Virus record (IMG/VR): IMGVR_UViG_3300042154_002141
Span: 1 to 59,537 of that record
Length of the DNA: 59,537 nucleotides
From: a virus
Lineage: Duplodnaviria; Caudoviricetes
Reading direction: 5' to 3' (one strand)
Within the stretch, counting starts at the first letter, position 1. Each line of letters begins with the position of its first letter. The translations under genes and the position numbers were made by a program. Below, piece after piece: positions 1 to 43,621 of the stretch. The notes below the pieces were generated by a model. That model made no database searches. It was not told the DNA's origin and saw only the letters and a list, made by a program, of their open reading frames with translations.

Positions 1-3000
1 GGTTCCCTGTATGCCTGTGGCACCTTGAATACCTGTAGAGCCAGTCGTTCCTTGCGCACCTACTGAACCTTGAATACCAGTAGCACCTGTTGAGCCCTGA
101 ATACCGGTCGAACCAGTAATACCTTGTAAGCCCGTCGCTCCTGTATTACCTGTAGTTCCAGTTGTACCCTGAGAACCTGTCGCACCGGTCGTACCAGTAA
201 TACCTTGCGCACCTGTTGAACCAGTTGCTCCCGTAGTTCCCTGGGCACCTGTAGAACCCGTAGCACCAGTAGAGCCTATAATACCCTGAGCGCCTGTTGC
301 GCCAGTCGTACCCTGAGCACCGGTTGTGCCTACAGTCCCCTGAGCACCAGTAGCACCCGTTGTTCCCGTAGTTCCTTGAGAACCGGTAGCACCGGTTGTA
401 CCAGTTGTTCCTTGAATACCTGTCGCTCCAGTTGAACCTGTTGTTCCCTGAATACCTGTTGTACCCTGCGTTCCAGTCGTGCCCTGCGAACCAGTGGCTC
501 CTGTACTACCTGTAGCTCCAGTTAGCCCCTGAAGTCCAGTAGTGCCGGTCGTGCCTTGCGCACCTAGTGTGCCCTGAACACCTTGAGAACCGGTAGTTCC
601 GGTAGTTCCTTGTGAGCCAGTTGCGCCTGTTGTTCCAGTCGCGCCTGTAGTTCCTTGTGAGCCAGTTGCGCCTGTTGTTCCTTGAATACCAGTAGAACCT
701 GTCGCACCAGTGGAACCAGTGATACCTTGTGAGCCTGTAGCACCAGTCGTGCCCTGTGCTCCAGTTGTTCCCAGGGTTCCTTGCGCGCCGGTCGCACCAG
801 TTGTGCCTTGAATACCTAGTAAACCTTGAACTCCTTGAGCACCGGTTGCACCAGTGTTACCAGTTGTTCCAGTCGTGCCCTGCGAACCAGTGGCTCCCGT
901 TGCGCCAGTTACACCCTGTAAGCCTGTGGTACCGGTGGCACCCTGAACACCAGTTGAACCTGTCGCTCCTGTTGAGCCTGTAATACCCTGAGACCCGGTC
1001 GCGCCTGTTGTTCCTTGAACACCAGTAGCCCCCGTCGTTCCTTGAATGCCTGTAGAGCCGGTAAGACCTTGAGAACCTGTAGCACCTGTAGAACCTGTTG
1101 CTCCCGTAGTTCCTTGAGAACCATTAGTTCCCGATATACCCTGAATGCCTGTGGCACCCGTTGTTCCAGTTGTGCCTTGTGAACCAATTGCTCCCTGAAT
1201 ACCAGTAGACCCTGTAGCACCGGTCGTACCAGTTGTACCTTGACTTCCGGTTGCTCCCGTAGTTCCCTGGATGCCAGTGGAGCCGGTTGTTCCCTGTATG
1301 CCTGTCGTACCCGTTGTTCCCTGACTTCCGGTCGAACCGGTCAGACCTTGCACACCGGTAGAACCTGTAGTGCCTTGAGTTCCGACACCGCCTTGAATAC
1401 CCTGCGGTCCGGTCGTGCCCTGTGGCCCGGTTGCACCCGTGGTTCCCTGAATACCTGTAGAACCTAGCACACCCTGAACACCCTGCGTACCAGTTGTTCC
1501 TTGCGCACCAGTGTCACCAATGTCACCGGTTCGCTGGAATGTTAGGTAGAATACCTCTGTGTCAGCTGGAGTAAATGTATTTCCGCTAACAAAAGAAATT
1601 GGAACATTGAAATGGTCGTCGTCGTGAACGTGGCTTCCTGTGATGTTAAAGAAAGCAAACTCGTTAGTGTCAGTCTTTTTTGTAGCTTTAAACGTACCCT
1701 TGATTTGAGATGTAGAGTCGTCGATTGTTTGTAGGAAGTTGTATATGTTTACGCCAAGGTCGTCATTGAACGAGATGTACATAACGTTTGCCAGAGTTGG
1801 GTCGGCGTTGTTTAGTCTGAATGTTCCTGTGTCAAGAGTTGCTGGGTCTGTAGTTCCATTGTCAAACTCGTACTCAAATGTTGCACCGCCGAATGAGCCA
1901 GTCAGACCTTGAACACCAGTAGTTCCTTGAGTTCCAGTAGTTCCCTGTGCTCCCGTTGTGCCGGTGGTTCCTTGTGTACCCGTGACACCTTGCGTTCCAG
2001 TTGTACCCTGCGTGCCTGTCTCTCCAGTAGAGCCGGTTGTGCCTTGGCTTCCCGTTGCACCGATTGTTCCTTGCGCGCCATTTGTACCTGAAGTTCCTTG
2101 GCTTCCAATAGTTCCTTGAGAACCCGTTGAACCTACAGCACCTTGGATACCTGTGGAGCCAGTCGTACCCTGAGCACCAGTAGCACCAATTGTGCCCTGA
2201 CTTCCAATGGTTCCTTGTGAGCCTGTAGTTCCAGTTGTTCCTTGAGTTCCGGTCACACCTGTGGTGCCCTGAACGCCTGTCAAACCTTGAGTACCGGTCG
2301 TACCCTGAGGGCCGAGCTGGGTGTACATAACCTGAGTGATACTAACGATTACTGAAGGAGTTACTGGGTGAGTCGGTGATGTCCCTGCAGCACTATGCTC
2401 TAAGGACAAACTTGTATTTGTGCCATGCCAATAAATTTGAACGTAGTCATTGGCACTAGTTGAAGTTCCAGTAAAAGTAAGAGTCATTAACTGGAAAGAT
2501 GGCTCACTTGAAGATTTGCGAGGCTGCAAGGTGACTGTAGTTGCAGAGTTCGGGTAGTCGTTGTTGTTTAGTTTTAGCCAGAACGTTGCTTCTTGAACGG
2601 AGTTTGCGTCATTAGATACCCTTGCAATAACCGTCATTGTGTAGGTTCCTGGATTAGCAATAGTTATTTCGCTACCATCAAGAACTGAAATTCCACTGTA
2701 ACCGTTTGGATAAACTGAGTTTATTGTAACTGCTTGAGCCACGGACGGTGTGACTATTCGTTGGTCTGTAGTGTCAAAGAAAGAGCCGTAGTATCCCTGA
2801 GATCCACCGGCACCTGGAGTTCCGTCTACACCCTGAAGACCTTGAATCGAAAGACCCTGAATACCCTGAACACCTTGTGAGCCAGTCCCTCCAGTAATAC
2901 CCTGGATTCCAGTAGAGCCTATTGTTCCTTGAGCTCCCGTGGCTCCGACTGTTCCTTGCGTACCGGTGGTTCCTTGTGCGCCCGTTGAGCCCGTTGTACC

Positions 3001-4482
3001 TACTGCACCCTGAATACCCGTGTCGCCGGTGGTCCCCGTCGTGCCTTGTGCTCCTGTAGTTCCTTGAGCTCCAGTTGTACCGATTGTGCCTTGAGCACCA
3101 GTGGTCCCTGTTATACCTTGAATACCAGTTGAACCTACTGCACCTTGCGCACCAGTGGTGCCCAGTGCTCCTTGGACGCCAGTTGAACCTGTCACACCCT
3201 GAGAACCGACGTCTCCCGTAAGGCCTTGCGTACCCGTGGTGCCTTGGATACCAGTGGAACCCGTGGTGCCAGTTGTACCCTGAGAACCAGTATTGCCGGT
3301 AGCTCCTGTAATCCCCTGCGCTCCGGTCTCCCCTAGTGTTCCTTGTGCGCCTGTTGTACCTTGAGCACCAGTTGAACCCTTTTCTGTAAATAAATCCCAA
3401 GCCGGGCTAGAGCCTGGTACAACATTAACAACACCATTATCGCGGCAGATGTAGGTAGAACCATTGTAAGTTACTACAAAGTACTCGTTGTAAGTTGCTC
3501 CTGGAGTGTATGGACCTCGAAAATCAAATCCTTGTCCAGTTGCACCTTGTGGGCCTGTTTCACCAGGCAGACCTGTATCGCCAGTTGGACCTGTTGTGCC
3601 TTGTGTACCTGTTGTGCCTTGCGTTCCTTGGATGCCCGTGTTGCCTTGGATACCTGTTGTGCCTTGTGCACCATTAAAACCCTGGATTCCTGTTGTGCCC
3701 TGGGAGCCGACTACTCCCTGAGCTCCAGTTGTGCCAACCGCACCCTGAACACCAGTTGAACCTGTGGTTCCTTGAGCGCCTACATCTCCTGTAATTCCTT
3801 GTGAGCCTGTGACACCTTGTACACCAGTAGAGCCAGTGGTTCCGGTCACACCCTGTGAGCCTGTTGCGCCCGTTGTGCCTTGTGAGCCTGTTATACCTTG
3901 CGAGCCTACAAAACCTGTAGTTCCCTGAGAACCTGTTGTGCCAGTCGTCCCCTGTGCGCCCGTAACACCTTGCAAACCTGTAGAACCTGTTACACCCTGT
4001 ACACCTGTAGAACCTGTTACACCCTGTGCACCGGTATCGCCAGTGTTGCCCTGTGAACCTATTTGACCCTGAACACCTGTAATACCTTGTGAGCCAGTTG
4101 TGCCCTGCGTTCCGGTCACACCCTGAGCTCCAACGGTGCCTTGCGATCCAGTTTGCCCTGCTGCACCCTGTACACCTGTGGAGCCGGTCACACCTTGTGA
4201 GCCTTGAATACCTGTTGTGCCTTGAGCACCGGTAGAGCCTATTACACCTTGTGCTCCAGTTGTACCGAGTATGCCCTGTGTTCCAACTGCGCCTTGAGTA
4301 CCTGTGGCTCCTTGATTGCCCTTAGTGCCTTGAACTCCTTGAGTCCCCTGAGCACCTTCTTGTCCTTGCGGGCCGCCTATGCCAACTTCAACCTTGTTTA
4401 TGACATCTTGAACTATGACCTTGTTCTGGTCACGCTGGTTGATTATTACTTTTCTATTTGTGTCTTCAAACTCTACAGCCAC
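1..4482 (-). CDS. Collagen-like (Gly-X-Y) tail fibre/surface protein, >1490 aa, truncated by left window edge
   Basis: Not in ORF track because no stop lies in the window. GTG at 4482 overlaps the upstream TAG and reads [25 protein letters not shown]. The same frame gives GATGIQGT at position 1 and [11 protein letters not shown] near 2780. Non-collagen inserts at about 3385-3530, 2310-2810 and 1530-1900. Frame spot-checked, not read codon by codon. Confidence 0.85.
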
Positions 4483-6776: not shown

Positions 6777-9865
<3,089 letters not shown>

Positions 9866-10176: not shown

Positions 10177-10503
10177 ATGACAATTTTTGTATTCCAGCCA
10201 GAAGAAGACTACCCAGACTTCGAGCTGTATGGTCCGCCTCCTTGCACAGAGTCTAACCCTGAAGCATTTTTCTCGGAAGATGCTCCGGAGGGCTCGATGA
10301 AGAAGGCTCGCGGGCGATACACCTACGAGCGTGAAGCTAAGAAGATATGCGGTGGCTGTGAGTACATGCACGCGTGTCGTGCCTACGCTATGAAGCGTCC
10401 TGAACTTGAAGGAATCTGGGGCGGAACCACTGAGATTGATCGCTCAAAGATTCGTCGCGGTCTTCGTATCACGCCAATCATACCGTCTCGTCGTCATACA
10501 TAA
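10177..10503 (+). CDS. WhiB-family transcription factor
   Basis: C...PEAFF...AKKICGGC....C...GIWGGTTE. Confidence 0.85.
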   Translation: MTIFVFQPEEDYPDFELYGPPPCTESNPEAFFSEDAPEGSMKKARGRYTYEREAKKICGGCEYMHACRAYAMKRPELEGIWGGTTEIDRSKIRRGLRITPIIPSRRHT

Positions 10504-10845: not shown

Positions 10846-10878
10846 AAGATACCCCCTCTTTCGAGGGGGTATTCTTTT
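10846..10878. terminator. Bidirectional intrinsic terminator
   Basis: ataccccctc-tttc-gagggggtat flanked by A and T runs, between convergent genes. Confidence 0.7.
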
Positions 10879-11353
10879 ACAGGGCGTCTTGTCGACTATT
10901 GAGTCTTGATCGAGTCACTGCATAGTAGAGTGGGTTGGCTGAGCTAAGCCCGAGCTCCTTAGCAAGCTTCGCTAGGGATATCTTGTTGACCTCGTACTCA
11001 TGGCGGATCTGGTCGTGGTATGCGGCTGACCCATCCTCTAGGTGAGCCAACTTAACTCGTACTGCGGCTTCTACCACTTCATGCGGTGAGGACTTGCTGT
11101 TCTTACCTTTTGGCTCTGCTGGAATTTCATCGGTCAAAATTCTTCTGCGGATGCCAGGGTAGGTTACGTCCAGACGCTTTGCCATCTGTATTAGGCTCCC
11201 GCCCTTGCGGTAGAACTCGACTAGGAGTCGAGTGTACTCGCGGGAAGCGTCATGCTGCGGCGACTTGGTTGTTCTAGAGCCGTAGGCTTTTCTAGCTAGC
11301 GGAAGCAGTGGCTCCATCTGTATCGCGTAGTATTCGAAGATCTCTTCGTTCAT
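10877..11353 (-). CDS. Hypothetical protein with two HTH-like segments
   Basis: SLIQMAKRLDVTYPGIRRR and SLAKLAKELGLSSANPLY; GGAG RBS. Confidence 0.55.
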   Translation of the reverse strand: MNEEIFEYYAIQMEPLLPLARKAYGSRTTKSPQHDASREYTRLLVEFYRKGGSLIQMAKRLDVTYPGIRRRILTDEIPAEPKGKNSKSSPHEVVEAAVRVKLAHLEDGSAAYHDQIRHEYEVNKISLAKLAKELGLSSANPLYYAVTRSRLNSRQDAL

Positions 11354-13239: not shown

Positions 13240-13611
13240 ATGAAAAAGACACTTGCCATTTTTGGCATCGCTGGCCTATTGGCAGCAACACTTTCCGGAT
13301 GCGCTGCAGGGCCTACCACACTTCAGAAGGTTTCTGAAGAGTGCAACCTGTCTGACGGTTTTCGGATTGGTGACGAAGGTAAGACCCTGTCCCTAGACAT
13401 GATGGGTGAAGACGAATACACTGGTGCCAACATCGATGATATCGTCTGCGTAGTTCAGTCGCAGCGTATCAAGATGCCTGAGTTTATCATCAACAGTATC
13501 GAGACTACTCGTGCTCTTGACGGTAAGCAGACTGGTGACTGGGACGGCTTTGAGGCTGAGTGGTCATACCACCCAGACAATGGCCTAGACCTAATGATTC
13601 ACCAGAAGTAG
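13240..13611 (+). CDS. Lipoprotein
   Basis: Signal peptide with lipobox LSGC. Confidence 0.7.
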   Translation: MKKTLAIFGIAGLLAATLSGCAAGPTTLQKVSEECNLSDGFRIGDEGKTLSLDMMGEDEYTGANIDDIVCVVQSQRIKMPEFIINSIETTRALDGKQTGDWDGFEAEWSYHPDNGLDLMIHQK

Positions 13612-13613
13612 TC

Positions 13614-14168
13614 GTGACCGAACTTCCAGACTCTAAGTACCAGGTTATCCTTATGGATCCACCCTGGTCTTATTATGGTGCCCAGGATAAGATGGGTGCA
13701 GCTGCGAAGTTCTATCCGACTATGTCGGACGAAGATCTGATGGCAATGGACATCAAGGGCATTTTGGAAAAGCCTGGAGTGGTTTTTATGTGGGTTACCT
13801 CTCCTCGCTTGGACTTTGCCATCGATCTTCTCCGGCATTGGGGGCTAACTTATCGTGGGGTAGCGTTCACCTGGATTAAGACCAGGGCGGATGGAGTTAC
13901 TCCAATCGGGGCGCAGGGTGTTCGCCCAAGCGTAGTGAAGCCAACAGCCGAGTACGTGCTGGTTGCTTCGAACATTCCTAAAGGCAGACCGCTGCCTATT
14001 TCAGATGAGGGTGTGCCTCATACTATTCTTGCTGCTAAGATGGAGCATTCGCGGAAGCCGGACGAGGTCCACCGCAGGATTGAGCGTCTATACCCAGACG
14101 CTACAAAGCTGGAGATGTTTGCCAGACGTCCAATGGAAGGTTGGAGCGTTTGGGGGAATGAGGTATAG
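13614..14168 (+). CDS. MT-A70-family adenine methyltransferase
   Basis: DPPW catalytic motif, FMWVT, HSRKPD, LEMFAR. Confidence 0.88.
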   Translation: MTELPDSKYQVILMDPPWSYYGAQDKMGAAAKFYPTMSDEDLMAMDIKGILEKPGVVFMWVTSPRLDFAIDLLRHWGLTYRGVAFTWIKTRADGVTPIGAQGVRPSVVKPTAEYVLVASNIPKGRPLPISDEGVPHTILAAKMEHSRKPDEVHRRIERLYPDATKLEMFARRPMEGWSVWGNEV

Positions 14169-15489: not shown

Positions 15490-15708
15490 TAAAACCGTAT
15501 AAGATTATAAATAGTTTAGGTTTAAGTTTACACGCACAAAAGAGGCTCCCTTCGGGGGGCCTTTTCTGTACAATATGATACTTTATATAATAAAATCTCG
15601 ACGTCCGGTAGAAGTTTGAACGAAGCTTCGTGATAAGTTGTGTCGGAGCTAGATCCGCGCGTTCGTGCTGATTTGACATATTTCTTTGGGGGGATGTAAG
15701 ATGTAGAT

Positions 15709-16032
15709 ATGAGTAAAGATTTCTTTGAACTGTTCAGCAAGTACAATCCGCTGAAAGCTAAGGATACTGAAGAGTATTCTCTGGATGAGCACATTCACAC
15801 CTTCTACAAGACTCCGCAAGGTGGAGCCAAGTATGTATGCAACTGTGGTAAGTCCATGTCGAATGATGAGGTCTTCGAGACCGATTTGTCGACGTCCATA
15901 AGGAAACTATCGGAAACAGAAGAGATTCTGGACCTGATTGACAAGATGATGAAAAACCCTCCGATGCGTGGAGACATTGCGCTATCGGACCTGAAAAGAC
16001 AGATACTAGAGATGCTAGGAGAGCAGAAGTAG
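15709..16032 (+). CDS. Hypothetical protein
   Basis: ORF track; coupled to next gene. Confidence 0.55.
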   Translation: MSKDFFELFSKYNPLKAKDTEEYSLDEHIHTFYKTPQGGAKYVCNCGKSMSNDEVFETDLSTSIRKLSETEEILDLIDKMMKNPPMRGDIALSDLKRQILEMLGEQK

Positions 16033-16202
16033 TGTGCAAGATTGACAGTTGCGAGAAAAAGGTTTTTGGGCGGGGGATGTGCTCAATGCACTACTTCCGC
16101 GAAAAGCGAAGTGGCGACGTCCAGGAAGTCAGCGATGAAATCTATATCGAGGACATGGAGGACTTCTGGCAGTTCGTTAAGAAGGAACTTAACATTGCCT
16201 AA
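16032..16202 (+). CDS. Small Cys/His zinc-finger protein (56 aa), not in ORF track
   Basis: MCKIDSCEKKVFGRGMCSMHY; TAGTG coupling. Confidence 0.6.
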   Translation: MCKIDSCEKKVFGRGMCSMHYFREKRSGDVQEVSDEIYIEDMEDFWQFVKKELNIA

Positions 16203-16644
16203 AAAGATTGTTCTGGTGACCGGAGGGTTCGACCCTGTGCACTCCGGTCACATCTCGTACATCCGAGCCGCGCGTGGGTTGGGCGACGTCCTTATTGTTG
16301 GAGTCAACTCGGACGCTTGGTTGGCTCGCAAGAAAGGTGAGCCTTTCATGCCCTTTGACGAGCGTGGCGGCATCATTGAGGAGTTCAAGTCTGTCGACGT
16401 CGTTATTGAGTTTGATGACGCAGATGGTACAGCAATAGACGCGATTAAGCAGGTTCTCGAGCTTTACCCTGAGGACGAGGTTATCTTTGCCAATGGCGGG
16501 GATAGGACGCTTGAGAATATCCCTGAGATGGTGGTAGAGTCGGAAAGACTTCACTTCGTTTTTGGCGTAGGTGGGGAAGACAAGAAGAACAGCTCGAGCT
16601 GGATTCTGAAAGACTATAAGGAGAGAGTTAATGGCACTAAGTAG
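16195..16644 (+). CDS. Cytidylyl/adenylyltransferase-family protein
   Basis: TGGFDPVHSGH, VGVNSD.WL.RKKG, FANGGDR, KKNSSS; TTG start inferred. Confidence 0.85.
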   Translation: MPKKIVLVTGGFDPVHSGHISYIRAARGLGDVLIVGVNSDAWLARKKGEPFMPFDERGGIIEEFKSVDVVIEFDDADGTAIDAIKQVLELYPEDEVIFANGGDRTLENIPEMVVESERLHFVFGVGGEDKKNSSSWILKDYKERVNGTK

Positions 16645-16876
16645 TGAGTGTGAAGTACATGGTTGGAGCTGGGACCCTGCTGACGACATGGGTTGCCCCA
16701 TCTGTCACGCGACTAAGGTTGAGCGCGAGCGCACGCTGACTATCCTAGAGCGTAAGATGTCTGAGATGGTCGACGTCCTTAAGGGGTCAATGTCAGTCAA
16801 CGACCTAAATGACTTGATTGACGAGATTGCGTTTTCGGACAAGGTTGAGTTTGATAGAGACGGAGAGAACGAGTGA
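16631..16876 (+). CDS. Hypothetical protein
   Basis: GGAG RBS, CxxH/CxxC. Confidence 0.5.
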   Translation: MALSSECEVHGWSWDPADDMGCPICHATKVERERTLTILERKMSEMVDVLKGSMSVNDLNDLIDEIAFSDKVEFDRDGENE

Positions 16877-17118
16877 GAGACTGGAAATACTATGTCGCAC
16901 GTTCGTGGATGACAACTGTTTACGTTGTGCTTGGCGCTGCTCTTTTTGGGCTGCTTGGGCTATTTGTTTATGCAGCTACCCAGGTCCTTGAGATTCAGAT
17001 CTTCCTGCTTTTTGTGGCGGCTGGGATAGTTATTACCCTAGTCGTTAGTTTCACTAAGTGGGCAGATCGCTATATCGAGAAAGTTCGCATCGCGGAGAAA
17101 AAGAAGGTTAAGAAATAA
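16873..17118 (+). CDS. Small membrane protein
   Basis: Two hydrophobic helices, basic tail. Confidence 0.6.
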   Translation: MRDWKYYVARSWMTTVYVVLGAALFGLLGLFVYAATQVLEIQIFLLFVAAGIVITLVVSFTKWADRYIEKVRIAEKKKVKK

Positions 17119-17649
17119 ATGTTTGATATGACTCAAGGAGTCTGCAAAGACGAAAAAGATTTGGACGTCTTCTTTCCAGATGATGATGGTGCCTATGACC
17201 GCGAGACCCTGCGTTATGCAAAGTCTATTTGCATGAGATGCCCTGTTCAAAAGGAGTGTCGAGACATGGGGCTGACAATGCTTGATGAAGTTGGAGTCTG
17301 GGGTGGTCTAACGGAGAGGGAGAGACGCCGAGTTGCCAGGGGCACTGACAAGCCGAAAGGTCATGCATTGGTAGTGGCCAGGGCCGTAAACGCTGACCGG
17401 CCAAGAATGGCTTTGGAGGCAAGCATTCACCTATACAAGCAGGCCCTAGAAGAGCAACGGGAAGGTATGCCTCTGGAGACCTTTGACATACTTCAGGCGC
17501 GAATCAATAATCCAGACCTCTCATTGAGCGAGATCGGAAAGCTGCTTGGTACATCTAAAGACATAATCTCTGGTAGGTTGCGTAGAGTGAAAGAGGCTGT
17601 AGCCTCTGGTAGAAAGATTGACTGGACTCAAGGAAGGCAAGGAATCTAG
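17119..17649 (+). CDS. WhiB-family protein with C-terminal WhiA-type HTH
   Basis: C..DVFF..AKSICMRCPVQKEC..GVWGGLTERER, then ARINNPDLSLSEIGKLL..SKDIISGRLRR. Confidence 0.8.
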   Translation: MFDMTQGVCKDEKDLDVFFPDDDGAYDRETLRYAKSICMRCPVQKECRDMGLTMLDEVGVWGGLTERERRRVARGTDKPKGHALVVARAVNADRPRMALEASIHLYKQALEEQREGMPLETFDILQARINNPDLSLSEIGKLLGTSKDIISGRLRRVKEAVASGRKIDWTQGRQGI

Positions 17650-17654
17650 GGCTT

Positions 17655-17798
17655 ATGTCAGAAAACGAAAACGTCGACGTCCAGAGGGAAATCCTTGGAG
17701 AGAAGATTGAGATTGTGGAGATTACTTTGAAAGTGCTCCGTGAGAAACTAGACCTTATTGAAGCACAGCTTGATGTTCTGCAAAGGTTGACTGACTAG
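17655..17798 (+). CDS. Small coiled-coil protein (47 aa), not in ORF track
   Basis: MSENENVDVQREILGEKIEIVEITLKVLREKLDLIEAQLDVLQRLTD. Confidence 0.5.
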   Translation: MSENENVDVQREILGEKIEIVEITLKVLREKLDLIEAQLDVLQRLTD

Positions 17799-17899
17799 GT
17801 GTGCTAGAATAATCTCGAATCAGGCGCTATTTGGTGGTTCTTCTATGCGCCTTGCCGGAACGGTTCCGGACACGCCAGTAAGGATTCATCTGGCAAACT

Positions 17900-17974
17900 G
17901 CCCTTATAGCTCAACGGTAGAGCGCCGCTCTTGTAAAGCGGAGGTTGTGATCTCGGAATTCACTGGGGGCTCCA
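17900..17974 (+). tRNA. tRNA-Thr(UGU) with non-canonical T arm
   Basis: Acceptor GCCCTTA/TGGGGGC, D arm GCTC/GAGC, anticodon arm CCGCT-CTTGTAA-AGCGG, CCA encoded. Confidence 0.85.
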
Positions 17975-17993
17975 GATAAGTTACAATAGAAGT

Positions 17994-18224
17994 ATGAAAG
18001 ATCCGCACTCTCCCGCGGGGCTAGAAGACATTGACTTCGAACTAGAAAAACTAGAAGCCTACGCTGTGGACCAAGTTAGAAGAGCCGAGCAACTCGGTGA
18101 AGACCGTCAGCGCGTTGAGTTCTTTGAGAAGCTCCGAGAGCTGATTGGGGAGAAGGATGCTGCCGGAGATTCGGTGGCGGTAGAAGTTCTCTCTTGGGTC
18201 TACGAAAAACTTTCTGAACTCTGA
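17994..18224 (+). CDS. Hypothetical protein
   Basis: ORF track. Confidence 0.5.
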   Translation: MKDPHSPAGLEDIDFELEKLEAYAVDQVRRAEQLGEDRQRVEFFEKLRELIGEKDAAGDSVAVEVLSWVYEKLSEL

Positions 18225-18225
18225 C

Positions 18226-18255
18226 TTGACAAAATGTCGTCGACGTCCCTAAGAT
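18226..18255 (+). promoter_or_regulatory. Sigma-70/SigA-type promoter with GTCGACGTCC in the spacer
   Basis: TTGACA-N18-TAAGAT, ATG at 18262. Confidence 0.6.
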
Positions 18256-18385
18256 GTATATATGAACGACTTTCAAAAAGAGTGTGAGCGCGTCGCTAAG
18301 CAAATAAAGCTTGAGCGTTTGATGCAGCAAAAGCGCCTGTATGAACAAGCAAAACGTCAACGTAAGGAAGAAAGGTTGAGTCGCT

Positions 18386-18541
18386 GTGAGCGCAACGTAT
18401 AGTAAGAAGTCTCTAGAGGAGATCCTCCGCGAGGCTGTAAATACTCCGCGCTGTGTGTGTGGTTGTGGCCGATACTCTGCTGAGAATACTTTCTCTAGCC
18501 CTGAGTGCTTCAACCGTGAAGAAGAGGAAGTGATTTACTAA
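18386..18541 (+). CDS. Small Cys-rich protein ending EEEEVIY (51 aa), not in ORF track
   Basis: MSATYSKK..CVCGCGR..NREEEEVIY; TAATG coupling. Confidence 0.6.
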   Translation: MSATYSKKSLEEILREAVNTPRCVCGCGRYSAENTFSSPECFNREEEEVIY

Positions 18542-18759
18542 TGGGCTGGAGAAGTATGGAGGCGGACTGGGACAACGGAATCGCGTATTGCGGAGAGTGT
18601 GCGCGTGAGTTCAGTGCTGCAGATAGTGTCGTGGAGGGCGGGGCTGAAGATGCAATTTGCTCGGATGAGTGCTACGATAAATACATAGGTGGTCCTGTTG
18701 TAGTGAACACCTTTTATATTCCGGAAAACAATGGTGAGGAGCCAGACGTTGTCTACTAA
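18541..18759 (+). CDS. Zinc-finger protein ending GEEPDVVY
   Basis: CGEC..CSDEC; C-terminal tag. Confidence 0.65.
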   Translation: MGWRSMEADWDNGIAYCGECAREFSAADSVVEGGAEDAICSDECYDKYIGGPVVVNTFYIPENNGEEPDVVY

Positions 18760-19024
18760 AGAAACAGTGTCGTTGAAGATTGGGGATCGAATCGTCGACG
18801 TCCCTAAGTATCTAGATCTTCCTGTAAAAACTATGATGGTAATCCTTAAGGAAAAGGATCCTAACCAACAGTTCATGTTGTCTTTGGAGGCTCTGTGCGA
18901 GCAACTGGAGGAGGAGGACGTGGACGTGATTGACGGTATGTCTGCTAGTGAGGCGGTTGCTTTGGTTACTGAGTGGATGAGCAAGTCAACGGAGCGTGAT
19001 GGAGAGGAGCCAGAGATTGTCTAG
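18749..19024 (+). CDS. Hypothetical protein ending GEEPEIV
   Basis: TTG start 7 nt after GAGGAG. Confidence 0.6.
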   Translation: MSTKETVSLKIGDRIVDVPKYLDLPVKTMMVILKEKDPNQQFMLSLEALCEQLEEEDVDVIDGMSASEAVALVTEWMSKSTERDGEEPEIV

Positions 19025-19241
19025 GATTGCTGAGCACGCTATTGGTTCTAGTATCGGTATAGAGACTATCCCTTGGCCTAGGTGCAAGGTTTGCGATGGA
19101 GCTATCTATAAGGGGTTCAACGAGGACCGCGTTCGTAATGTCGCTACAGATGATGATGGAAAGCTCTACCACATCTTCGCGATTGACTGTATGCTGAGTC
19201 CTAGAGTTTTTAACAAAGAGGAGCCGGACATTGTTTATTGA
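19017..19241 (+). CDS. Hypothetical protein ending KEEPDIVY
   Basis: TTG start after GAGGAG; CKVC..H...C. Confidence 0.6.
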   Translation: MSRIAEHAIGSSIGIETIPWPRCKVCDGAIYKGFNEDRVRNVATDDDGKLYHIFAIDCMLSPRVFNKEEPDIVY

Positions 19242-19566
19242 GAGACCTTGGGGCGGCTACATGATTGTTTACAGTAGCCCTGAAGTTACCATGAAGATTC
19301 TCAAGGTGCTTCCTGGAAAGCGCCTGTCGCTGCAAACTCACGCTCTTCGTTCGGAAGAGTGGCGTCCGATTACTGGCGGGCTGTCAGCTCGCATAGGCGC
19401 TGGTATGTATGATTTGGTGGTTGGCAAAACCTATATCGTCGACGTCGGTATGGTTCATAGACTAATCAATGATGGGAGTGATGTTGGATATGTTGCGGAA
19501 ATCATAAAAGGTGTGTACCATGAAGAAGACATTGAAAGATTGGAAGATGACTATGGCAGATCTTGA
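19231..19566 (+). CDS. Cupin, mannose-6-phosphate isomerase type II C-terminal-like
   Basis: ERPWGGY, PGKRLSLQTH..RSEEW, HRL.N, EEDIERLEDDYGR. Confidence 0.8.
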   Translation: MFIERPWGGYMIVYSSPEVTMKILKVLPGKRLSLQTHALRSEEWRPITGGLSARIGAGMYDLVVGKTYIVDVGMVHRLINDGSDVGYVAEIIKGVYHEEDIERLEDDYGRS

Positions 19567-19849
19567 GTTTCGAGTTGGTGGGTTTCCTTTTGTGGCTAAG
19601 AACTACAAAGAGGACATTGAGCTGAACTTTGGTATGACGCGTTCGCTAGCTATGAGTGGTGGGGAGATTACGTTTTCTTTTCTGCCTTACATGCTTTCGG
19701 CTTTGAAGACTAAGCGTGACAAAGATGTTTTTAACTCGTTAGCGAATCCTGTGAAGCTTCGCGTAATCAAAGTTTGGTATGACGCCTGTAATGGTGTAGG
19801 TTTGTCGACGTCCCTAAATAATGGAGAAGAGCCTGACATTGTCTACTGA
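19553..19849 (+). CDS. Hypothetical protein ending GEEPDIVY
   Basis: ORF track, C-terminal tag. Confidence 0.6.
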   Translation: MADLEFRVGGFPFVAKNYKEDIELNFGMTRSLAMSGGEITFSFLPYMLSALKTKRDKDVFNSLANPVKLRVIKVWYDACNGVGLSTSLNNGEEPDIVY

Positions 19850-20084
19850 TTTACAGCTTGGGGATTACGCTGTCTTTAAAAACAGCCCTGACATACACAC
19901 CGCTGACGTCTATAAGGTTGTTCGTATCGTTACGAGTGGTTATGGCTTTAATATTGAGCGTGTAGTTATGGTTGCTTCGGAAGATGGAAAAGAGTACCCT
20001 GTGACTGATAATCAACTTATTCGAGTTGCTGGACCAGTGGTGAGTCATCTTAATCTTGGTGAGGAGCCAAATATTGTCTACTGA
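19839..20084 (+). CDS. Hypothetical protein ending GEEPNIVY
   Basis: TTG start within upstream tag codons. Confidence 0.6.
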   Translation: MSTDLQLGDYAVFKNSPDIHTADVYKVVRIVTSGYGFNIERVVMVASEDGKEYPVTDNQLIRVAGPVVSHLNLGEEPNIVY

Positions 20085-20361
20085 CATTAGAATCAATCAC
20101 AAGGGTATGGTTCTCTTTGCTAAGCCTCTGCTCGAACTGCAGGGGGAAACTGGTGGAGAGTATGTTCCTTACATAATCAAATACCGCGCTATGAATATAG
20201 CTGAGGATACGTTTGCTAGATACGCTCTCGTTAAGTCCACTGAATATACCTATCAAATGTTTGTGGACCTTGAGCCGCATGAACGTAGGGGTATCGTGGA
20301 GCGCTGGTTAGATGAATCTCTGATTCCTGGTAAATATGAGGAACCGGACATTGTCTACTGA
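20074..20361 (+). CDS. Hypothetical protein ending YEEPDIVY
   Basis: TTG start within upstream tag codons. Confidence 0.6.
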   Translation: MSTDIRINHKGMVLFAKPLLELQGETGGEYVPYIIKYRAMNIAEDTFARYALVKSTEYTYQMFVDLEPHERRGIVERWLDESLIPGKYEEPDIVY

Positions 20362-20689
20362 GCCTGAGTTTGGCATAGAGGATTACCCTGAGCCGGACTA
20401 CCGCTGCTTTAGATGTGGTGAAGATCTTTCGGATGAAGATGAAGAGACTTATAGTGAGTGGGCTGCAGTAGATACTGGTGAGCCTATCCTCCTACATAAT
20501 GAGGATTGCCTTGAGCCTCCTGCAATGTCGTTCTTTAGGACCTGTGAGTGCTGCGAGTCTGAGTTTGATTTGTCTGATCAGAGGTTTGTGGTGGGGGAGG
20601 GTAAGACTTGGTACTGCAGCGAAGGGTGTAAGATTAGACATGAACGTGTTTGTCTTATGAATGTTGAGGAACCTGATATTGTCTACTAA
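20351..20689 (+). CDS. Zinc-finger protein ending VEEPDIVY
   Basis: CFRC, CECC, CSEGC. Confidence 0.6.
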   Translation: MSTEPEFGIEDYPEPDYRCFRCGEDLSDEDEETYSEWAAVDTGEPILLHNEDCLEPPAMSFFRTCECCESEFDLSDQRFVVGEGKTWYCSEGCKIRHERVCLMNVEEPDIVY

Positions 20690-20858
20690 CTCCTTTGTCG
20701 GAAAAAAGGTTTCCATCGGACTTCGATATGTAATCGAGATGGGTGCAGCTGAGGGTGTAGTTATTGAGGAGAGTTCAATAGGGGTTCTTGTTCAGGTAAA
20801 ACGTAATACTGTGTTCTACCCGTGGACGTCCATTGTGTATCTTCGTATTGACGAATAA
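20679..20858 (+). CDS. Small Sm/SH3-like hypothetical protein
   Basis: TTG start; FYPWTSIVYL. Confidence 0.5.
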   Translation: MSTNSFVGKKVSIGLRYVIEMGAAEGVVIEESSIGVLVQVKRNTVFYPWTSIVYLRIDE

Positions 20859-20883
20859 CAAAACGCTGTGCTAGTATTGCGTT

Positions 20884-21579
20884 ATGGAAATCAAATACCG
20901 CAGTGACATGACCGTTAAGCTTGTGCAGAGCATGGCTTCGGACTCGGCAGTAACACTGGCTGCCCGCGTATCAACTGGTGCTGTGGAGAGCACTCCGGAA
21001 AAAGAAGCCGGACTAATCAACTACCTGATGCGAGATCGTCATGGTTCTCCGTTTGAACACAACGCTTTTACGTTCTACATTGAAGCTCCTATCTTCGTGT
21101 TCCGTGAGTTTATGCGTCACCGCATGGCTTCTTACAATGAGGAGAGTGGACGTTACAAGGAGCTGGAGCCTGTGTTCTACGTCCCTAACCTAGAACGTAA
21201 GTTGGTTCAAAAAGGTAAGCCAGGTGCTTACGAGTTTGAGCTTGGAGACATTAGTCAGTTGGCTACTGTTTATCGCTCAAGTTACAATGCGAACAAGGCT
21301 GCCTATGAGGAGTATCAGAAGATGTTGCACGCTGGTGTAGCCCGAGAGATTGCTCGTGGAGTTCTTCCTGTTGGTTTGTATTCTTCTATGTATGTAACTA
21401 TGAATGCTCGTGCTTTGATGAACTTCCTGTCGTTACGTACTACCCGTGAGGGAACGCACTTCCCTAGTTTCCCTCAGCGTGAAATCGAAATGGTTGCTGA
21501 GCAGATGGAGTGCCACTTCGCAGAGAAGATGCCTCTTACCTATGAAGCCTTCAACAAGAACGGACGCGTGGCACCATAA
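20884..21579 (+). CDS. thyX: FAD-dependent thymidylate synthase
   Basis: HGSPFEH, REFMRHRMASYNEESGRY, NARALMNFLSLR. Confidence 0.96.
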   Translation: MEIKYRSDMTVKLVQSMASDSAVTLAARVSTGAVESTPEKEAGLINYLMRDRHGSPFEHNAFTFYIEAPIFVFREFMRHRMASYNEESGRYKELEPVFYVPNLERKLVQKGKPGAYEFELGDISQLATVYRSSYNANKAAYEEYQKMLHAGVAREIARGVLPVGLYSSMYVTMNARALMNFLSLRTTREGTHFPSFPQREIEMVAEQMECHFAEKMPLTYEAFNKNGRVAP

Positions 21580-21770
21580 TGGATTCTTATGGCGTAGTTA
21601 CTATGGGGCCGTGGTTGTTCTCGATTCCGGGACTTCTTGTTTATCTTCTAGGGATCTTCATCATCTTGTTCTGGTCGCGTGACCGTGCTCTTTGGGAGTT
21701 CGTTATCTCCACTATTATGTTCAACGTTCTCTGGAACTTGCTTGGATTCGCTTTTGTTGTTCGTGCATAA
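21579..21770 (+). CDS. Small membrane protein
   Basis: Two hydrophobic helices; TAATG coupling. Confidence 0.55.
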   Translation: MDSYGVVTMGPWLFSIPGLLVYLLGIFIILFWSRDRALWEFVISTIMFNVLWNLLGFAFVVRA

Positions 21771-21941
21771 AACGACATATTTAGCAAACATTGTGATACA
21801 ATTTAGTTAGTGCGGGAGTTGTTGCCAGCACTAGCATGGACGTTATCAGCCATGTTTCTCCTTTCTGTCAAGAAAAGCCCCTCGAGAAATCGGGGGGTTT
21901 TTCGACTTGACAAACTATTTGTGTAGTGCTAATTTCTAACT

Positions 21942-22421
21942 ATGCAAACATTTCTACCTTTTATTGAGTTCAGTGAGTCAGCTAAGGCCCTGGACAGCAA
22001 GCGACTAAACAAGCAAATCCTTGAGGGATACCAGATCCTCAACGTCCTTAGTAATGACGACCCTCGCGCTGGATGGCGCAATCACCCTGCAGTAAAGATG
22101 TGGAGAGGTCACGAGGTGGCTCTATGGAACTATATCTTCGAGTGTGTTGAAGAGGCTGACCGCCGAGGCATCAAGACAGACAAGAACGTAGAGAACCTGC
22201 GAGCCTTGCGTGATCGTGCTGGTCACATGTGGGGCTATGGTCTTCCTGAGTGGTTTAGCAATGCAGAGGCTCTCAATCGTGTCGTTATGACGCACAGAGC
22301 CAACCTCTATAAGAAAGACCCTTACTTCTATGTGGACTTCTGTAATGCTGTGGAGGACGCGTGGAATGAGCCATGCTGCGAGAAGTGCAACTACTACTGG
22401 GTGACGCACGTTCCTGCCTAA
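21942..22421 (+). CDS. Pyrimidine-dimer DNA glycosylase/endonuclease V-like protein
   Basis: MQTFLP...LDSKRLNKQILE..GWRNHPAVKMWRGHE, HRANL.KKDP; upstream TTGACA. Confidence 0.8.
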   Translation: MQTFLPFIEFSESAKALDSKRLNKQILEGYQILNVLSNDDPRAGWRNHPAVKMWRGHEVALWNYIFECVEEADRRGIKTDKNVENLRALRDRAGHMWGYGLPEWFSNAEALNRVVMTHRANLYKKDPYFYVDFCNAVEDAWNEPCCEKCNYYWVTHVPA

Positions 22422-22440
22422 GATATGGTAGGATGGCGCT

Positions 22441-22947
22441 ATGAGAAACAAAACTACTGAAGTTGTTGCTGTCGACGTCCCTGAGATTATAAATCTGGGT
22501 GGAGATTCGTTCTTTGCAACTGTTGAAATCATCAAGACGGATGGTGGCTATAGTACTGAGTGGTGGGTGTCCGGTAACTTTGAGGGGGAGTTACTGGTTG
22601 TCGGCTCCCTGTGTGTGCCTGTGTGGGGTGAGACACTGGAAGATGCCAGTAAGAAGGTCGTACACTTACGGAAGACCGTTTTAGACCTGATTCTAAGCGT
22701 GTATGACGGGGGTGCAAAGGTGCATTCAACGCCTACAAAGAGCCTAAAGTTCGAGATTGCCAGACGTCATATCACTTACTATGTGGATTCTGGGGTGTTT
22801 GTCGGTGCTAAAGATCGTTTTGTGGCTGCTTACAGCCTTGCTCAGCAGTTCCGAGTCAAGGAAATCGCTCAACTACTCTCTGACATTCTTAATGTAAACG
22901 TGAGAACTGTCCACGACTGGATCTATCAAGCCCGCCAACGCGGGTAA
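22441..22947 (+). CDS. Hypothetical protein with C-terminal HTH
   Basis: LSDILNVNVRTVHDWIYQARQRG. Confidence 0.55.
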   Translation: MRNKTTEVVAVDVPEIINLGGDSFFATVEIIKTDGGYSTEWWVSGNFEGELLVVGSLCVPVWGETLEDASKKVVHLRKTVLDLILSVYDGGAKVHSTPTKSLKFEIARRHITYYVDSGVFVGAKDRFVAAYSLAQQFRVKEIAQLLSDILNVNVRTVHDWIYQARQRG

Positions 22948-27316: not shown

Positions 27317-27626
27317 GTTGCTTACTCCTTAAAGTATTAGTTTTTAGTTCTGTATTGGATACTATGAGCTTTTGGAAAATATGTCAAGTCGAAACGTATA
27401 GTATCTCTGAAAAAGGGTGTTGGAGATACTATAAGAAAAGAGGAAAAATAAATTGGTAAAAACGTATAGTATGTCAACCTATGTCAACCTATTTACGATT
27501 GTCAACTTAATTTACTATACGCGTGTGCGCGTGTGTATAGGGTGGCAGAATATTTAATCGGAACTCGTAGACTCGAGGTAACTTGTGAAGTTTGGTTGAC
27601 AAAAGGTTGGTAAGTTGTGCTAGGAT

Positions 27627-28100
27627 GTGAATATGGAAAATAAAGAAAACCCGTTCGAGTTCTTTGACTTCGATGTTGAAGAAGTTCGAACCGCTGAAGA
27701 AAAGATCAAAGGTATGTCTCGCCCGGATAGGGATAAGAGAATCTGCACCTGTGGTCATCCGATGAATAGTCACACTGTAAGTTCGAGTGGGATTGTTCTT
27801 TGTACGCCATCAAGAATGGTGTGCCCTTGTAAGAATGTTCGACCAGTGTTGTTAGCTGGAGATGCTCGCAAGTTTTTGCGTAAGACTATGGGACCTGGAC
27901 CAGAGCATGCATTGGCTCGAGGTATCTTGGCATCGTATGACGATGGCAAAGATGTTGAGTGGCTGATTGATATGATTTGCGATAAGTGCGGTGCAGAGGG
28001 TAATGTTAGTCCTGTACCAACAACTCGCGAAGGTATTGTACAATTTGAAGCAACAGGCTATGATGCATTATTGTGCAGAAACTGCCGTTCAGGGAACTAA
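27627..28100 (+). CDS. Cys-rich zinc-binding protein
   Basis: CTCGH..H, CPC, CDKC, CRNC. Confidence 0.6.
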   Translation: MNMENKENPFEFFDFDVEEVRTAEEKIKGMSRPDRDKRICTCGHPMNSHTVSSSGIVLCTPSRMVCPCKNVRPVLLAGDARKFLRKTMGPGPEHALARGILASYDDGKDVEWLIDMICDKCGAEGNVSPVPTTREGIVQFEATGYDALLCRNCRSGN

Positions 28101-38394: not shown

Positions 38395-38431
38395 ACTTGA
38401 CACGAAGTTCGTTAGAACTTAGGATTTAGGT

Positions 38432-38857
38432 ATGGACAGAAAAATCTACGAAGAACCAGACTTGGTTACGCCCCCAATAATGTATTCGGGCTATCGCAAC
38501 TATGACATAAACATCTGGTCGCTCGAAAGCGGAGTGCTGAACATCACAGCGTATCAACTATCGGTTGATAAAGACGACCCAGAGGAAGTCCTCGGCACAG
38601 ATTACAGCGCAGAGTATTTCACAGAGAACTTTTACCCCGATAAAGAGGCAGACTACAAAATGATTGACTACCTGCTCTGCTACAAACTCGGTATGCCAGA
38701 TTGGTTAGCAATAGGCGACCTAGACGAGTGGACTACCTACTTGGGCAACACCTCCGACTATGTGAACGACCTAGTGAACAAAAGCGGTGGGATTGCCCCA
38801 AGAAAGTTAGTCGAATGGCTTGACAGCCTCCCTGCTTATGAACCAAACTTGATTTAG
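38432..38857 (+). CDS. Hypothetical protein ending YEPNLI
   Basis: ORF track; TTGACA upstream. Confidence 0.6.
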   Translation: MDRKIYEEPDLVTPPIMYSGYRNYDINIWSLESGVLNITAYQLSVDKDDPEEVLGTDYSAEYFTENFYPDKEADYKMIDYLLCYKLGMPDWLAIGDLDEWTTYLGNTSDYVNDLVNKSGGIAPRKLVEWLDSLPAYEPNLI

Positions 38858-41345: not shown

Positions 41346-41600
41346 CAACTTATCGGTAGGTTTTTTATTCTCATTTCCCCTACCGATAACCGCAGAGGGC
41401 TTTGTTTACTTTCACCTCTGCCGAACCCCCCTAGATTGGTTGCTAGGGGGGTTCACCCTTTCTGGCCGGAAATTGAATAATTCGTGCTCCGCACAGCCAG
41501 AATAACTAAAACCTTTTTCAAAAGAAAAAGAACGCCGACCTCGACCCACGCTTGACTTGTCAGCCCAAACCGCTAGACTTGTATTATGGAAAGGAACACA

Positions 41601-41846
41601 ATGACTAAACCAACCAAAAAATCAGTTATGTATCTAACCCACGCAGACTACGAATGGCGTGGTATGGAGGAGGGCTGGCGAACAGATGTAATCTACCAAG
41701 ATGAAATGGGTCGCCAAACCGACTACTTCTACTCACCAGACGGAGTAGGTTGCTTGTGGGTAGACACGCTAGAAGAACTACTAACGAACTCGTATGACTA
41801 TGACGAGAACACACCAATCATTATTCTAAGACCAAAGGAGGACTAA
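41601..41846 (+). CDS. Hypothetical protein
   Basis: AAGGA RBS after module 1. Confidence 0.6.
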   Translation: MTKPTKKSVMYLTHADYEWRGMEEGWRTDVIYQDEMGRQTDYFYSPDGVGCLWVDTLEELLTNSYDYDENTPIIILRPKED

Positions 41847-42094
41847 TGAGTAGCAACTACCCAGAGGGTTCTATGCGTGGGTCTGGTATCTACGCACAGG
41901 AAGTTTCGTATGACGAGTTCGATTGCGAGAACGAGGAGTGCGAAAAAACCAACGAGGCAAGTCAAGCAACAACTGACGATTGGGGCAACTACTCTGTGGA
42001 ATGTGAGTTCTGCGGAGTAACCAACCGAGAGAGTAGCCTCGACCAAGACCGAGATGATTACTTCGCGGACTATGACCCGAATGACGAAAGGTAA
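41846..42094 (+). CDS. Acidic zinc-finger protein
   Basis: GGAGG RBS, C....C and CEFC. Confidence 0.6.
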   Translation: MSSNYPEGSMRGSGIYAQEVSYDEFDCENEECEKTNEASQATTDDWGNYSVECEFCGVTNRESSLDQDRDDYFADYDPNDER

Positions 42095-42494
42095 CAAAGT
42101 GAAAGCCAAAATCACAATCGTAATGGAATACGACACCGAGGACTTGTCCTTTATGATGGGAGAAGAAGTCAATGACGGAAACTTCCTTGAAGTCATAAAT
42201 GACAGGATTATCGAGGACATACTTGACGCATACCGACAAGGTGGCGTTGATGCCCTAGCAACAAAAATCAAACTAACCGAAAGTGAAAAAATGTCAAACA
42301 TCAAATACCCAGATGTAAAAGTAAAACTCACAGGCACAGACGGAAACGCCTTTGCGATTATGGGTGCTGTTCAAAAGGCACTCCGTAAGGCTGGCGTTCC
42401 ACAGACGGAACTTGACGAATACTACAAGGAAAGCACAAGTGGCGACTACGACCACTTGCTACAAACCGCTAGTCGTTGGGTCAAAGTTTCCTAA
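42054..42494 (+). CDS. Hypothetical phage protein
   Basis: C-terminal GTDGNAFAIMG..SGDYDHLL domain; start uncertain. Confidence 0.6.
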   Translation: MITSRTMTRMTKGNKVKAKITIVMEYDTEDLSFMMGEEVNDGNFLEVINDRIIEDILDAYRQGGVDALATKIKLTESEKMSNIKYPDVKVKLTGTDGNAFAIMGAVQKALRKAGVPQTELDEYYKESTSGDYDHLLQTASRWVKVS

Positions 42495-42700
42495 CCGATA
42501 GCCCGAATGGAGAAATCCGTTCGGGCTTTGGTTTGCCAGCGGAAATTGAATAATTGAGCTCCGCTCAAAACAGAATAATTAAAAACCTTTTTCAAAAGAA
42601 AAAAGTCGCGACCCTCCAAAGTTGGTATTGACAAATGTCGGTGCTGTGTGGTTAGATTGTTATGTGAGGCAAATAGACAATCTCACAAGGAGAAATACAA

Positions 42701-43465: not shown

Positions 43466-43621
43466 ATGGCAATCAATTACCGAAGAACTTTTCAGGGTGC
43501 GTGGGAACTTTACGCCTCCGACAAAAACGGATACTTAGTATCTCGTCAGTATTTCTTTTACACCAAGCGTGAGGCAACGCAGTTGTTTCGTGCGGAAATG
43601 AAGAAGATAAATAATGGCTAA
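43466..43621 (+). CDS. Small protein (51 aa), not in ORF track
   Basis: AGGAG RBS; MAINYRRTFQGAWELY. Confidence 0.6.
   Translation: MAINYRRTFQGAWELYASDKNGYLVSRQYFFYTKREATQLFRAEMKKINNG

Follow-up and report, generated by a model that had tools for sequence, protein, structure and literature searches.

The gene at positions 17119–17649 (plus strand) of a 59,537-bp virus record in IMG/VR (IMGVR_UViG_3300042154_002141; Duplodnaviria, Caudoviricetes), analyzed over its whole length and referred to here as the window, encodes a 176-residue protein in which a complete WhiB-like (Wbl) domain is followed, in the same chain, by the DNA-reading part of WhiA, specifically its long helix and helix-turn-helix (HTH). 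WhiA and WhiB are essential regulators of cell division in actinobacteria, and both modules are known as separate host proteins; what appears to be new is the fusion of WhiB with the WhiA C-terminal domain (CTD), which public sources name only “WhiB”. We favor, with a probability of roughly 0.6, the reading that the fusion is a single-chain regulator of an actinobacterial phage that docks on sigma-A and reads an upstream promoter box.

Domain Architecture of the Fusion Protein

The coding sequence (17119–17649, plus strand; ATG start, stop codon included) was taken from the list of open reading frames (ORFs) and is supported by two Pfam domains, both over their curated cut-offs, in the profile check that an initial annotation made from the sequence alone had proposed. 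The protein belongs to the Wbl family: residues 5–71 (17131–17331, plus strand) matched Pfam Whib at E 1.2e-18 (67.8 bits against a cut-off of 23.6) and contain four cysteines spaced C-X28-C-X2-C-X5-C (C9, C38, C41, and C47), the pair F18–F19, and GVWGG at residues 59–63. The WhiB basic helix, T65-E-R-E-R-R-R71, and linker residues 72–81 (together 17311–17361, plus strand) lead into the second half, with the predicted model placing this helix at residues 66–73 and the next one at 82–112. That annotation had described a four-cysteine WhiB domain in this ORF followed by a string resembling WhiA, and both were recovered, the string being residues 107–157 (KQALEEQREGMPLETFDILQARINNPDLSLSEIGKLLGTSKDIISGRLRRV). 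The Pfam matches to the two domains lie well outside what chance would produce.

The C-terminal half consists of a long helix, residues 82–112 (17362–17454, plus strand), which carries the invariant residues N91 and R94 and aligns to the WhiA “LH” helix at WhiA residues 222–252, and a three-helix HTH, residues 119–163 (17473–17607, plus strand), with the recognition helix S146-K-D-I-I-S-G-R-L-R-R156. Pfam HTH_WhiA matched residues 91–159 at E 1.6e-7 (32.1 bits against a cut-off of 27) and was the sole HTH family above its curated cut-off; MarR_2 (19.5 bits), Sigma70_r4 (16.2 bits, cut-off 24.1), and an HTH_AsnC-type family (13.5 bits) all scored below theirs. Sigma70_r2 was not matched in the Pfam scan, nor were WhiA_N and LAGLIDADG_WhiA in a scan to E 10. 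Because these defining WhiA N-terminal domains are absent, the protein is not a WhiA, yet it bears the WhiA long helix and HTH. With the NCBIfam whole-protein WhiA model the score was 15.9 (cut-off 44.1), in keeping with a lone domain, NCBIfam sigma models matched weakly (E 0.0016–0.027), and PHROGs returned WhiB families only.

The same architecture was found in an alignment of the window protein and 17 relatives. Scanned singly, all 18 members matched both Whib and HTH_WhiA (best E 5.3e-13 for the latter), and ten each matched Sigma70_r4 (best E 2.5e-4) and MarR_2. A profile of this alignment, searched against Protein Data Bank (PDB) sequences, matched WhiB1 (2.9e-14), Streptomyces WhiB (8dy9_H, 3.8e-13), WhiB3, WhiB4, and WhiB7 in its N-terminal part. 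In its C-terminal part only WhiA was significant (3hyi, 5.1e-6; 8dy9_I, 7.1e-6; 8dy7_I, 7.8e-6), the top sigma chain being SigW at E 0.96. A second profile, built from the C-terminal parts alone, gave 4.3e-6 to 2.8e-5 for WhiA chains and 0.95 for SigW, and it retrieved genuine WhiA proteins at up to 56 bits.

Predicted Structure of the C-Terminal Half

An AlphaFold2 model built on the 18-protein alignment is confident over residues 82–163 (pLDDT 72–93; by element, 63–88 in helix 82–112 and 86–93 in the HTH helices) and shows a 31-residue helix at 82–112 followed by helices at 119–130, 136–143, and 147–163. The top two Foldseek hits were both WhiA structures (E 0.021, probability 1.00; E 0.49, probability 0.99). 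By VIA-align, model residues 81–163 were superimposed on residues 219–303 of Streptomyces WhiA (8dy9_I) with Z 9.3 and an rmsd of 2.4 Å over 83 residues, followed by Thermotoga WhiA (3hyi, Z 8.6) and a YlxM-like protein (Z 7.2), with sigma region 4 domains at Z ≤6.0. The identification of this half as a WhiA-type HTH, which the initial annotation had proposed, therefore stands, with HTH_WhiA over its cut-off in the window protein and found in 18 of 18 aligned proteins, and with WhiA leading both the PDB profile and the structural comparisons.

Conservation of Functional Residues

WhiA loses its function on substitution R266E, L274A, or K287E and is impaired by R293E or R295E, as described in section 17 of PMC10243135, and section 13 of the same source describes N229 of the long helix as contacting DNA. 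In the HMMER alignment, R266, L274, K287, R293, and R295 pair with R128, L136, K147, R153, and R155 of the fusion, and N91 falls opposite N229. These counterparts are kept in 18 of 18 aligned proteins except at L136 (16 L, 2 F) and R153 (10 R, 8 K), and GVWGG and the four cysteines are invariant. The same positions were followed in 34 divergent fusions, comprising the window protein and 33 cluster representatives, in which N91 is present in 33, R128 in 32 (K in the other two), K147 in 30 (R in the other four), and R155 and R156 in 32 each.

The WhiB half is conserved as well. All four cluster cysteines are present in 34 of 34 divergent fusions, together with F18 (33), F19 (34), G59 (34), W61 (32), G62 (34), and G63 (32). 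The aromatic-patch residues AP2–4 of WhiB1 (F17, F18, and W60), reported in PMC13013590 to drive sigma binding, align to F18, F19, and W61; AP1 is not clearly retained, position 2 being F in just 6 of 34. The residues of the WhiB helix described as touching DNA (S75, R77, E78, and R80) pair with T65, R67, E68, and R70. Because the cluster, aromatic, and DNA-contact residues are conserved across the 34 fusions, both halves are, on this comparative evidence, under selection for their known functions.

Distribution and Origin of the Fusion

A word-indexed search returned 73 proteins at E ≤0.001 among 441 candidates, of which 18 carried both Pfam domains (43–99% identity) and one, a fragment of 103 residues, carried HTH_WhiA only; the full-length fusion is kept in 17 metagenomic relatives. 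The relatives are named in databases either “WhiB family redox-sensing transcriptional regulator” or “hypothetical protein”; automated Pfam tables list both domains for them, such that the architecture is visible to pipelines though unnamed by any source. An exhaustive search with the C-terminal profile against 1.84 billion cluster representatives returned 382 proteins at E ≤0.001. Among the best 150 of these 382, a local hidden Markov model of the N-terminal 82 alignment columns matched 34 (33 of at least 150 residues and one fragment), corresponding to at least 33 fusion clusters at 50% identity. The best 150 also included a bona fide WhiA (P0156, with WhiA_N, LAGLIDADG_WhiA, and HTH_WhiA) and stand-alone HTH_WhiA proteins of 83–140 residues. 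Three further proteins of 516–563 residues (P0115, P0201, and P0213) combined Sigma70_r2 and region 4 with a C-terminal HTH_WhiA lying ∼50–95 residues past region 4, and another (P0209) combined region 4 with HTH_WhiA.

A rough FastTree phylogeny of 108 C-terminal domains, rooted at the midpoint after multi-repeat HTH proteins and hits covering <60 profile positions had been dropped, grouped 36 of the 42 fusion domains into a single clade that also contains P0156. Five of the others fell beside the sigma fusions and one elsewhere. This weakly suggests that the fusions are mainly of single origin.

Outside these sets the fusion was rarely found. The C-terminal 91 residues, compared by tblastn with 50,697 deposited phage records, gave two weak hits only (E 0.3). 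The long mycobacteriophage WhiBs Saroj gp57 and Wildcat gp86, which align over 81–88% of the query and were considered as possible known fusions, lack HTH_WhiA and have zinc-ribbon-like tails. A pattern-based scan of one genome per species across 185,579 prokaryote species found 27 WhiB loci, none matching beyond residue 88, and no chromosomal or prophage copy of the fusion. When longer proteins with residues 80–176 were sought, none of 473 candidates reached E ≤10, a result of little weight, and a search for the C-terminal profile in viral contigs yielded 25 pattern stretches, none confirmed, with patterns too narrow even for the two related phages described below. In a metagenome scan, L233 (97% identical) was the only full-length relative among the matches listed, the rest being mostly plain WhiBs. 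No report of a WhiB/HTH_WhiA fusion was found in literature searches: WhiA is not mentioned in a survey of WhiB in actinophages (PMC8612146) or in the COBRA paper on whiB-encoding freshwater phages, and a 2026 analysis of the Wbl family uses “fused” for laboratory constructs only.

Proposed Mode of Action

The initial annotation had treated WhiA and WhiB as separate proteins that act as co-activators, in agreement with the account of the Streptomyces venezuelae pair by Lilic et al. 2023 (cryo-EM structures 8DY7 and 8DY9; PMC10243135). In the native complex as described there, WhiB sits on region 4 of sigma-A and touches both the WhiA N-terminal domain (NTD) and the minor groove just upstream of the −35 element, the WhiA long helix contacts the minor groove that follows, and GACAC is read by the recognition helix. 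The order of elements along the fusion chain (WhiB helix, long helix, HTH) parallels the order of their sites on that DNA (−35, WhiB minor groove, long-helix minor groove, GACAC). The annotation had further proposed a single-chain mimic of the pair. The presence of both modules in one chain bears this out in part; direct mimicry of a WhiB–HTH contact does not apply, because native WhiB, as described in PMC10243135, touches the WhiA NTD and not the HTH, and the covalent link would instead replace that bridging domain.

Under the reading that we favor, the N-terminal Wbl domain would hold a [4Fe-4S] cluster on its four cysteines, and its aromatic patch would dock it onto region 4 of the host principal sigma factor in RNA polymerase. 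[quoted passage not shown] The covalent link would take over the role played in the host pair by the homing-endonuclease-like NTD of WhiA, and the likely outcome would be that selected sigma-A promoters, whether of the phage or of the host, are activated with no need for host WhiA. Domain identity, residue conservation, and the spread of the family are shown by the comparisons above, and from them we infer that the fusion binds a cluster and sigma, recognizes specific DNA, has such targets, and activates instead of repressing; it might also, as had been proposed from the sequence, redirect host RNA polymerase or cell-division genes.

Candidate Target Boxes in Related Phages

Two IMG/VR relatives that are syntenic with the window carry orthologs of the fusion, here G001 (53% identity, P0074) and G002 (48% identity). 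On the sense strand of G002, 19 GACAC-N10-24-TTGAC sites were found, whereas 100 local shuffles averaged 1.19 and never gave more than 5. Of the 19, 15 share a single layout, in which cGACACGCCg is followed after ∼11 nt by gaTTTGACA, after a further 17 nt by a −10-like hexamer, and then by a ribosome-binding site, and they stand before successive genes (L109–L113, 56.9–74.2 kb, minus strand). The G002 box has the sequence of the established WhiA motif, and its position and orientation are those expected from the sepX arrangement, in a phage with a WhiA-type reader. As a sequence pattern, the GACAC reading is supported in one of the three relatives.

Other repeated elements were noted in these phages. 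The window has, at 41450–55000 (plus strand), ∼22 copies of a unit of ∼130 nt, one ahead of each small gene. Each unit comprises, in order, a terminator-like hairpin, GAAATTGAAATT, a hairpin of 5–6 bp around GCTCCGC, AAACAGAATAA and CCAAAGAAAAAAG, a GC-rich stretch, TTGACT-17-TAGACT, and then GCGGAGCCAACCAA or GCGGACACAACCAA. The hairpin stem covaries (TGAGC/GCTCA, TGGGC/GCCCA, TGCGC/GCGCA, TGAAC/GTTCA), and GCGGAGC within the unit is the reverse complement of the upstream GCTCCGC. From their sequence, the units read as tandem promoters (TTGAAA-17-CAGAAT and TTGACT-17-TAGACT) with a putative structured element. In G001, a region homologous to this multi-promoter region (L106–L108, 26.7–48.3 kb, plus strand) has 25 copies of GGCATTTTTCATTTTTAC(A/T)AGA ahead of small genes.

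A further repeat, GTCGACGTCC, occurs in eight exact copies against 0.03 expected, and its core CGACGTCC in 11, at window positions 15598–22480 and 30935 (plus strand), concentrated in the fusion gene cluster. In one clear case it is associated with a promoter, lying in the spacer of that at 18226–18255, and the other copies lie inside ORFs in different frames; it is conserved at the DNA level, because the copies fall in different reading frames and one lies in a promoter spacer. The 97% identical contig (L233) has the repeat too, whereas G002 has three copies and G001 none. Apart from these three G002 copies, the repeated elements of the window were not found in G001 and G002.

Evidence Against and Alternative Explanations

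Several observations weigh against a sigma-docked reader of GACAC boxes. The AlphaFold2 model has a mean pLDDT of 63.8, with the WhiB half under 50; low values in this half are common when the cluster is missing and the alignment is shallow. A complex was predicted for residues 1–85 (with the 18-protein alignment and a 4Fe-4S cluster) and residues 390–466 of Mycobacterium smegmatis SigA as a stand-in sigma. It scored 0.46, compared with 0.01 for the best of three controls, which is weak support that may reflect likeness only, similar complexes having already been solved. Of 80 solved complexes, 58 passed the mark applied, as did 2 of 110 mismatched pairs, but those passing with scores ≤0.60 comprised just 7 of the 80 and both of the mismatches; the runs shared at least 91% of contacts, with a partner pLDDT of at least 75.

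The promoter evidence against a general link between the fusion and GACAC boxes is considerable. GACAC-N10-24-TTGAC sites number one and zero on the two strands of the window against 0.84 expected, and one and two in G001 against 0.8–0.9 expected, which is chance level. In the homologous multi-promoter region each of the three related phages has a repeated upstream element of its own, yet their recognition helices are nearly alike (SKDIISGRLRR, RKDAVSGRLRR, and SKDSVAGKLRR); therefore, the fusion cannot explain all three. Each phage encodes other HTH proteins as well, among them one in the window (10877–11353, minus strand) and a 169-residue two-HTH protein in G002 (L232, 1192–1701, minus strand; a weak HTH_WhiA score of 19.1 bits), and either could be a reader of the repeated promoter elements. 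Across IMG/VR, the pattern GACACGCC-N9-15-ATTTGACA was repeated only on the G002 contig (7+1) among the matches listed, apart from two occurrences on one other contig, which lacks HTH_WhiA.

The strongest alternative is a dominant-negative takeover, in which the fusion shuts down the host WhiA/WhiB regulon of cell-division genes, and with it host division, by filling either the position of Wbl proteins on sigma-A region 4 or the GACAC sites of the host. The recognition helix is nearly that of actinobacterial WhiA, so host WhiA sites are plausible targets, the lack of GACAC boxes above chance in the window leaves host targets open, and there is a precedent in WhiBTM4, which down-regulates whiB2 and copies the phenotype of whiB2 depletion (PMC6282962, citing Rybniker 2010). 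A mere competitor for sigma, however, needs no conserved DNA-reading domain, a role that the plain WhiB encoded at 10177–10503 could already fill, and the 15 phage promoters of G002 with a well-placed GACAC box suggest positive control of phage genes. We regard this takeover as rather unlikely.

Less likely still is a redox-sensing repressor independent of sigma, with the HTH binding operators alone and the Fe-S domain sensing O2 or NO. The weak docking prediction would fit such a protein, as would inverted TGACA..TGTCA pairs that overlap the −35 element of several promoters at 41.5–54.4 kb; however, the sigma-binding residues of the aromatic patch are kept in 32–34 of the 34 fusions, nearly all Wbl proteins examined in PMC13013590, three phage Wbls included, bind sigma-A region 4, and WhiA-type HTH domains are described as acting as monomers on an asymmetric motif (PMC10243135).

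That the C-terminal half is an ordinary HTH of the sigma region 4 or LuxR type, its WhiA likeness being merely a shared fold, is very improbable: the WhiA-CTD and sigma region 4 are akin in fold and DNA contacts (PMC10243135, section 14), Sigma70_r4 and NCBIfam sigma models match weakly as given above, and WblP shows that Wbl–sigma fusions exist (PMC6282962), but the better match to sigma-4 or LuxR-type HTHs against which the initial annotation had cautioned was not found, Sigma70_r4 remaining below its cut-off and HTH_WhiA exceeding its own, sigma region 2 being absent, the PDB profile favoring WhiA over SigW (E ∼1) by five orders of magnitude, the structural match spanning the WhiA-specific long helix with Z well above that of any sigma domain, and the C-terminal profile retrieving real WhiA proteins.

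The favored single-chain regulator also allows a broader and more tentative view, to which we give somewhat less than even odds, that the WhiA-CTD serves as a portable “second −35 reader” for which nature has three kinds of tether to sigma region 4, namely WhiA-NTD and WhiB in host cells, fusion to WhiB in this phage family, and fusion to sigma. The phage form would then be a one-protein appropriation of sigma that turns on a class of phage promoters with a GACAC-type box ∼23 bp upstream of the −35 element. The sigma–HTH_WhiA fusions are in line with a portable module of this kind, able to read an upstream box once it is linked to region 4 of sigma. If this view is true, the endonuclease-like domain of WhiA is dispensable for activation, and 176 residues do what T4 needs AsiA plus MotA for.

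The cooperation of WhiA and WhiB, monomers that are unbound to each other off DNA, was solved only in 2023. A natural single-chain form is a “Rosetta stone” fusion that gives independent support to the WhiA/WhiB model and suggests that the WhiA NTD is chiefly a bridge. It points to a compact means by which a phage may re-aim host RNA polymerase, and it offers a minimal system of 176 residues for structural studies and for the design of promoter-specific activators in actinobacteria. Some genes labeled “WhiB” in environmental actinophages, moreover, carry a second, unlabeled DNA-reading domain.

Genomic Context

The window has a CheckV completeness of 36% and encodes a collagen-like tail fibre (1–4482, minus strand), both subunits of ribonucleotide reductase (6777–9865), and a large terminase (57389–58798). 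The fusion gene is the fifth in an uninterrupted series of plus-strand ORFs (15709–17798). Its start is supported by the relatives, which open with MFDM(S/T)QG, and its ATG abuts the stop of the preceding gene, with GAAGG 11 nt upstream. A candidate promoter of this cluster lies at 15673–15711 (plus strand; TTGACA-18-TAAGAT, then 6 nt to the ATG at 15709; 10/12 in a consensus scan), preceded by a terminator-like hairpin at 15546–15558. Because the plus-strand ORFs run unbroken from 15709 to 17798, this promoter-like site would drive the fusion gene. The arrangement is that of a leaderless transcript, which is frequent in actinobacteria, and promoter-like sites of this kind (TTGACA-17/19-TAnnnT) stand 6 nt before an ATG at 15673–15711, 18226–18264, 27596–27630, and 38397–38435.

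The plain WhiB gene of the window (10177–10503, plus strand) encodes 108 residues (Pfam Whib 56.6 bits) and has a counterpart in G001 at 55% identity, and the HTH protein at 10877–11353 (minus strand) has 158 residues with two HTH-like stretches (DUF2089-HTH 26.1 bits, below cut-off). An ORF of 202 residues at 13560–14168 (plus strand) contains DPPW within VILMDPPWSYYG, a string resembling MT-A70-type adenine methyltransferases. At the end of the record (59399–59537), ∼20 tandem copies of GGGCTT are followed by (GCTG)n, a run that could be a terminal repeat or could have arisen as an artefact at the end of the assembly.

Comparison With Known Systems

The closest counterpart is the S. venezuelae pair itself, whose four-cysteine Wbl domain and WhiA long helix and HTH, as described in PMC10243135, all recur in the fusion together with counterparts of the DNA-contact residues. 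The host system, however, consists of two proteins of ∼87 and ∼330 residues, whereas the phage form is one chain of 176, and host WhiA has a homing-endonuclease-like NTD that bridges to WhiB, with backbone contacts at R177 and R185 (PMC10243135), which the fusion lacks.

Among Wbl proteins, an additional module is known from WhiB7 (AT-hook) and WblP (extracytoplasmic function, ECF, sigma). Like the fusion, WhiB7 is a Wbl protein with its own C-terminal DNA reader, described as binding immediately upstream of the −35 element while the protein sits on sigma-A region 4 (PMC10243135, PMC13013590); its reader is a short AT-hook for the minor groove, whereas the fusion has a folded HTH of 80 residues that would read a major groove and reach further upstream. 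WblP, a natural fusion of Wbl to a sigma-4-like fold on a mobile element (PMC6282962, citing Bentley 2004), differs in bearing an ECF sigma factor, whereas the fusion lacks sigma region 2 and its C-terminal half scores as WhiA. WhiBTM4 of mycobacteriophage TM4 and other phage WhiBs are likewise phage-encoded Wbl proteins, and Wbl genes are among the commonest regulators of actinophages, but these are single-domain proteins.

The T4 proteins AsiA and MotA resemble the fusion in outline, in that sigma region 4 is bound by one component while a second recognizes a new promoter box, and Wbl proteins are compared with AsiA in PMC13013590; they have no homology to the fusion, however, and in T4 the two functions lie in two proteins and region 4 is remodelled.

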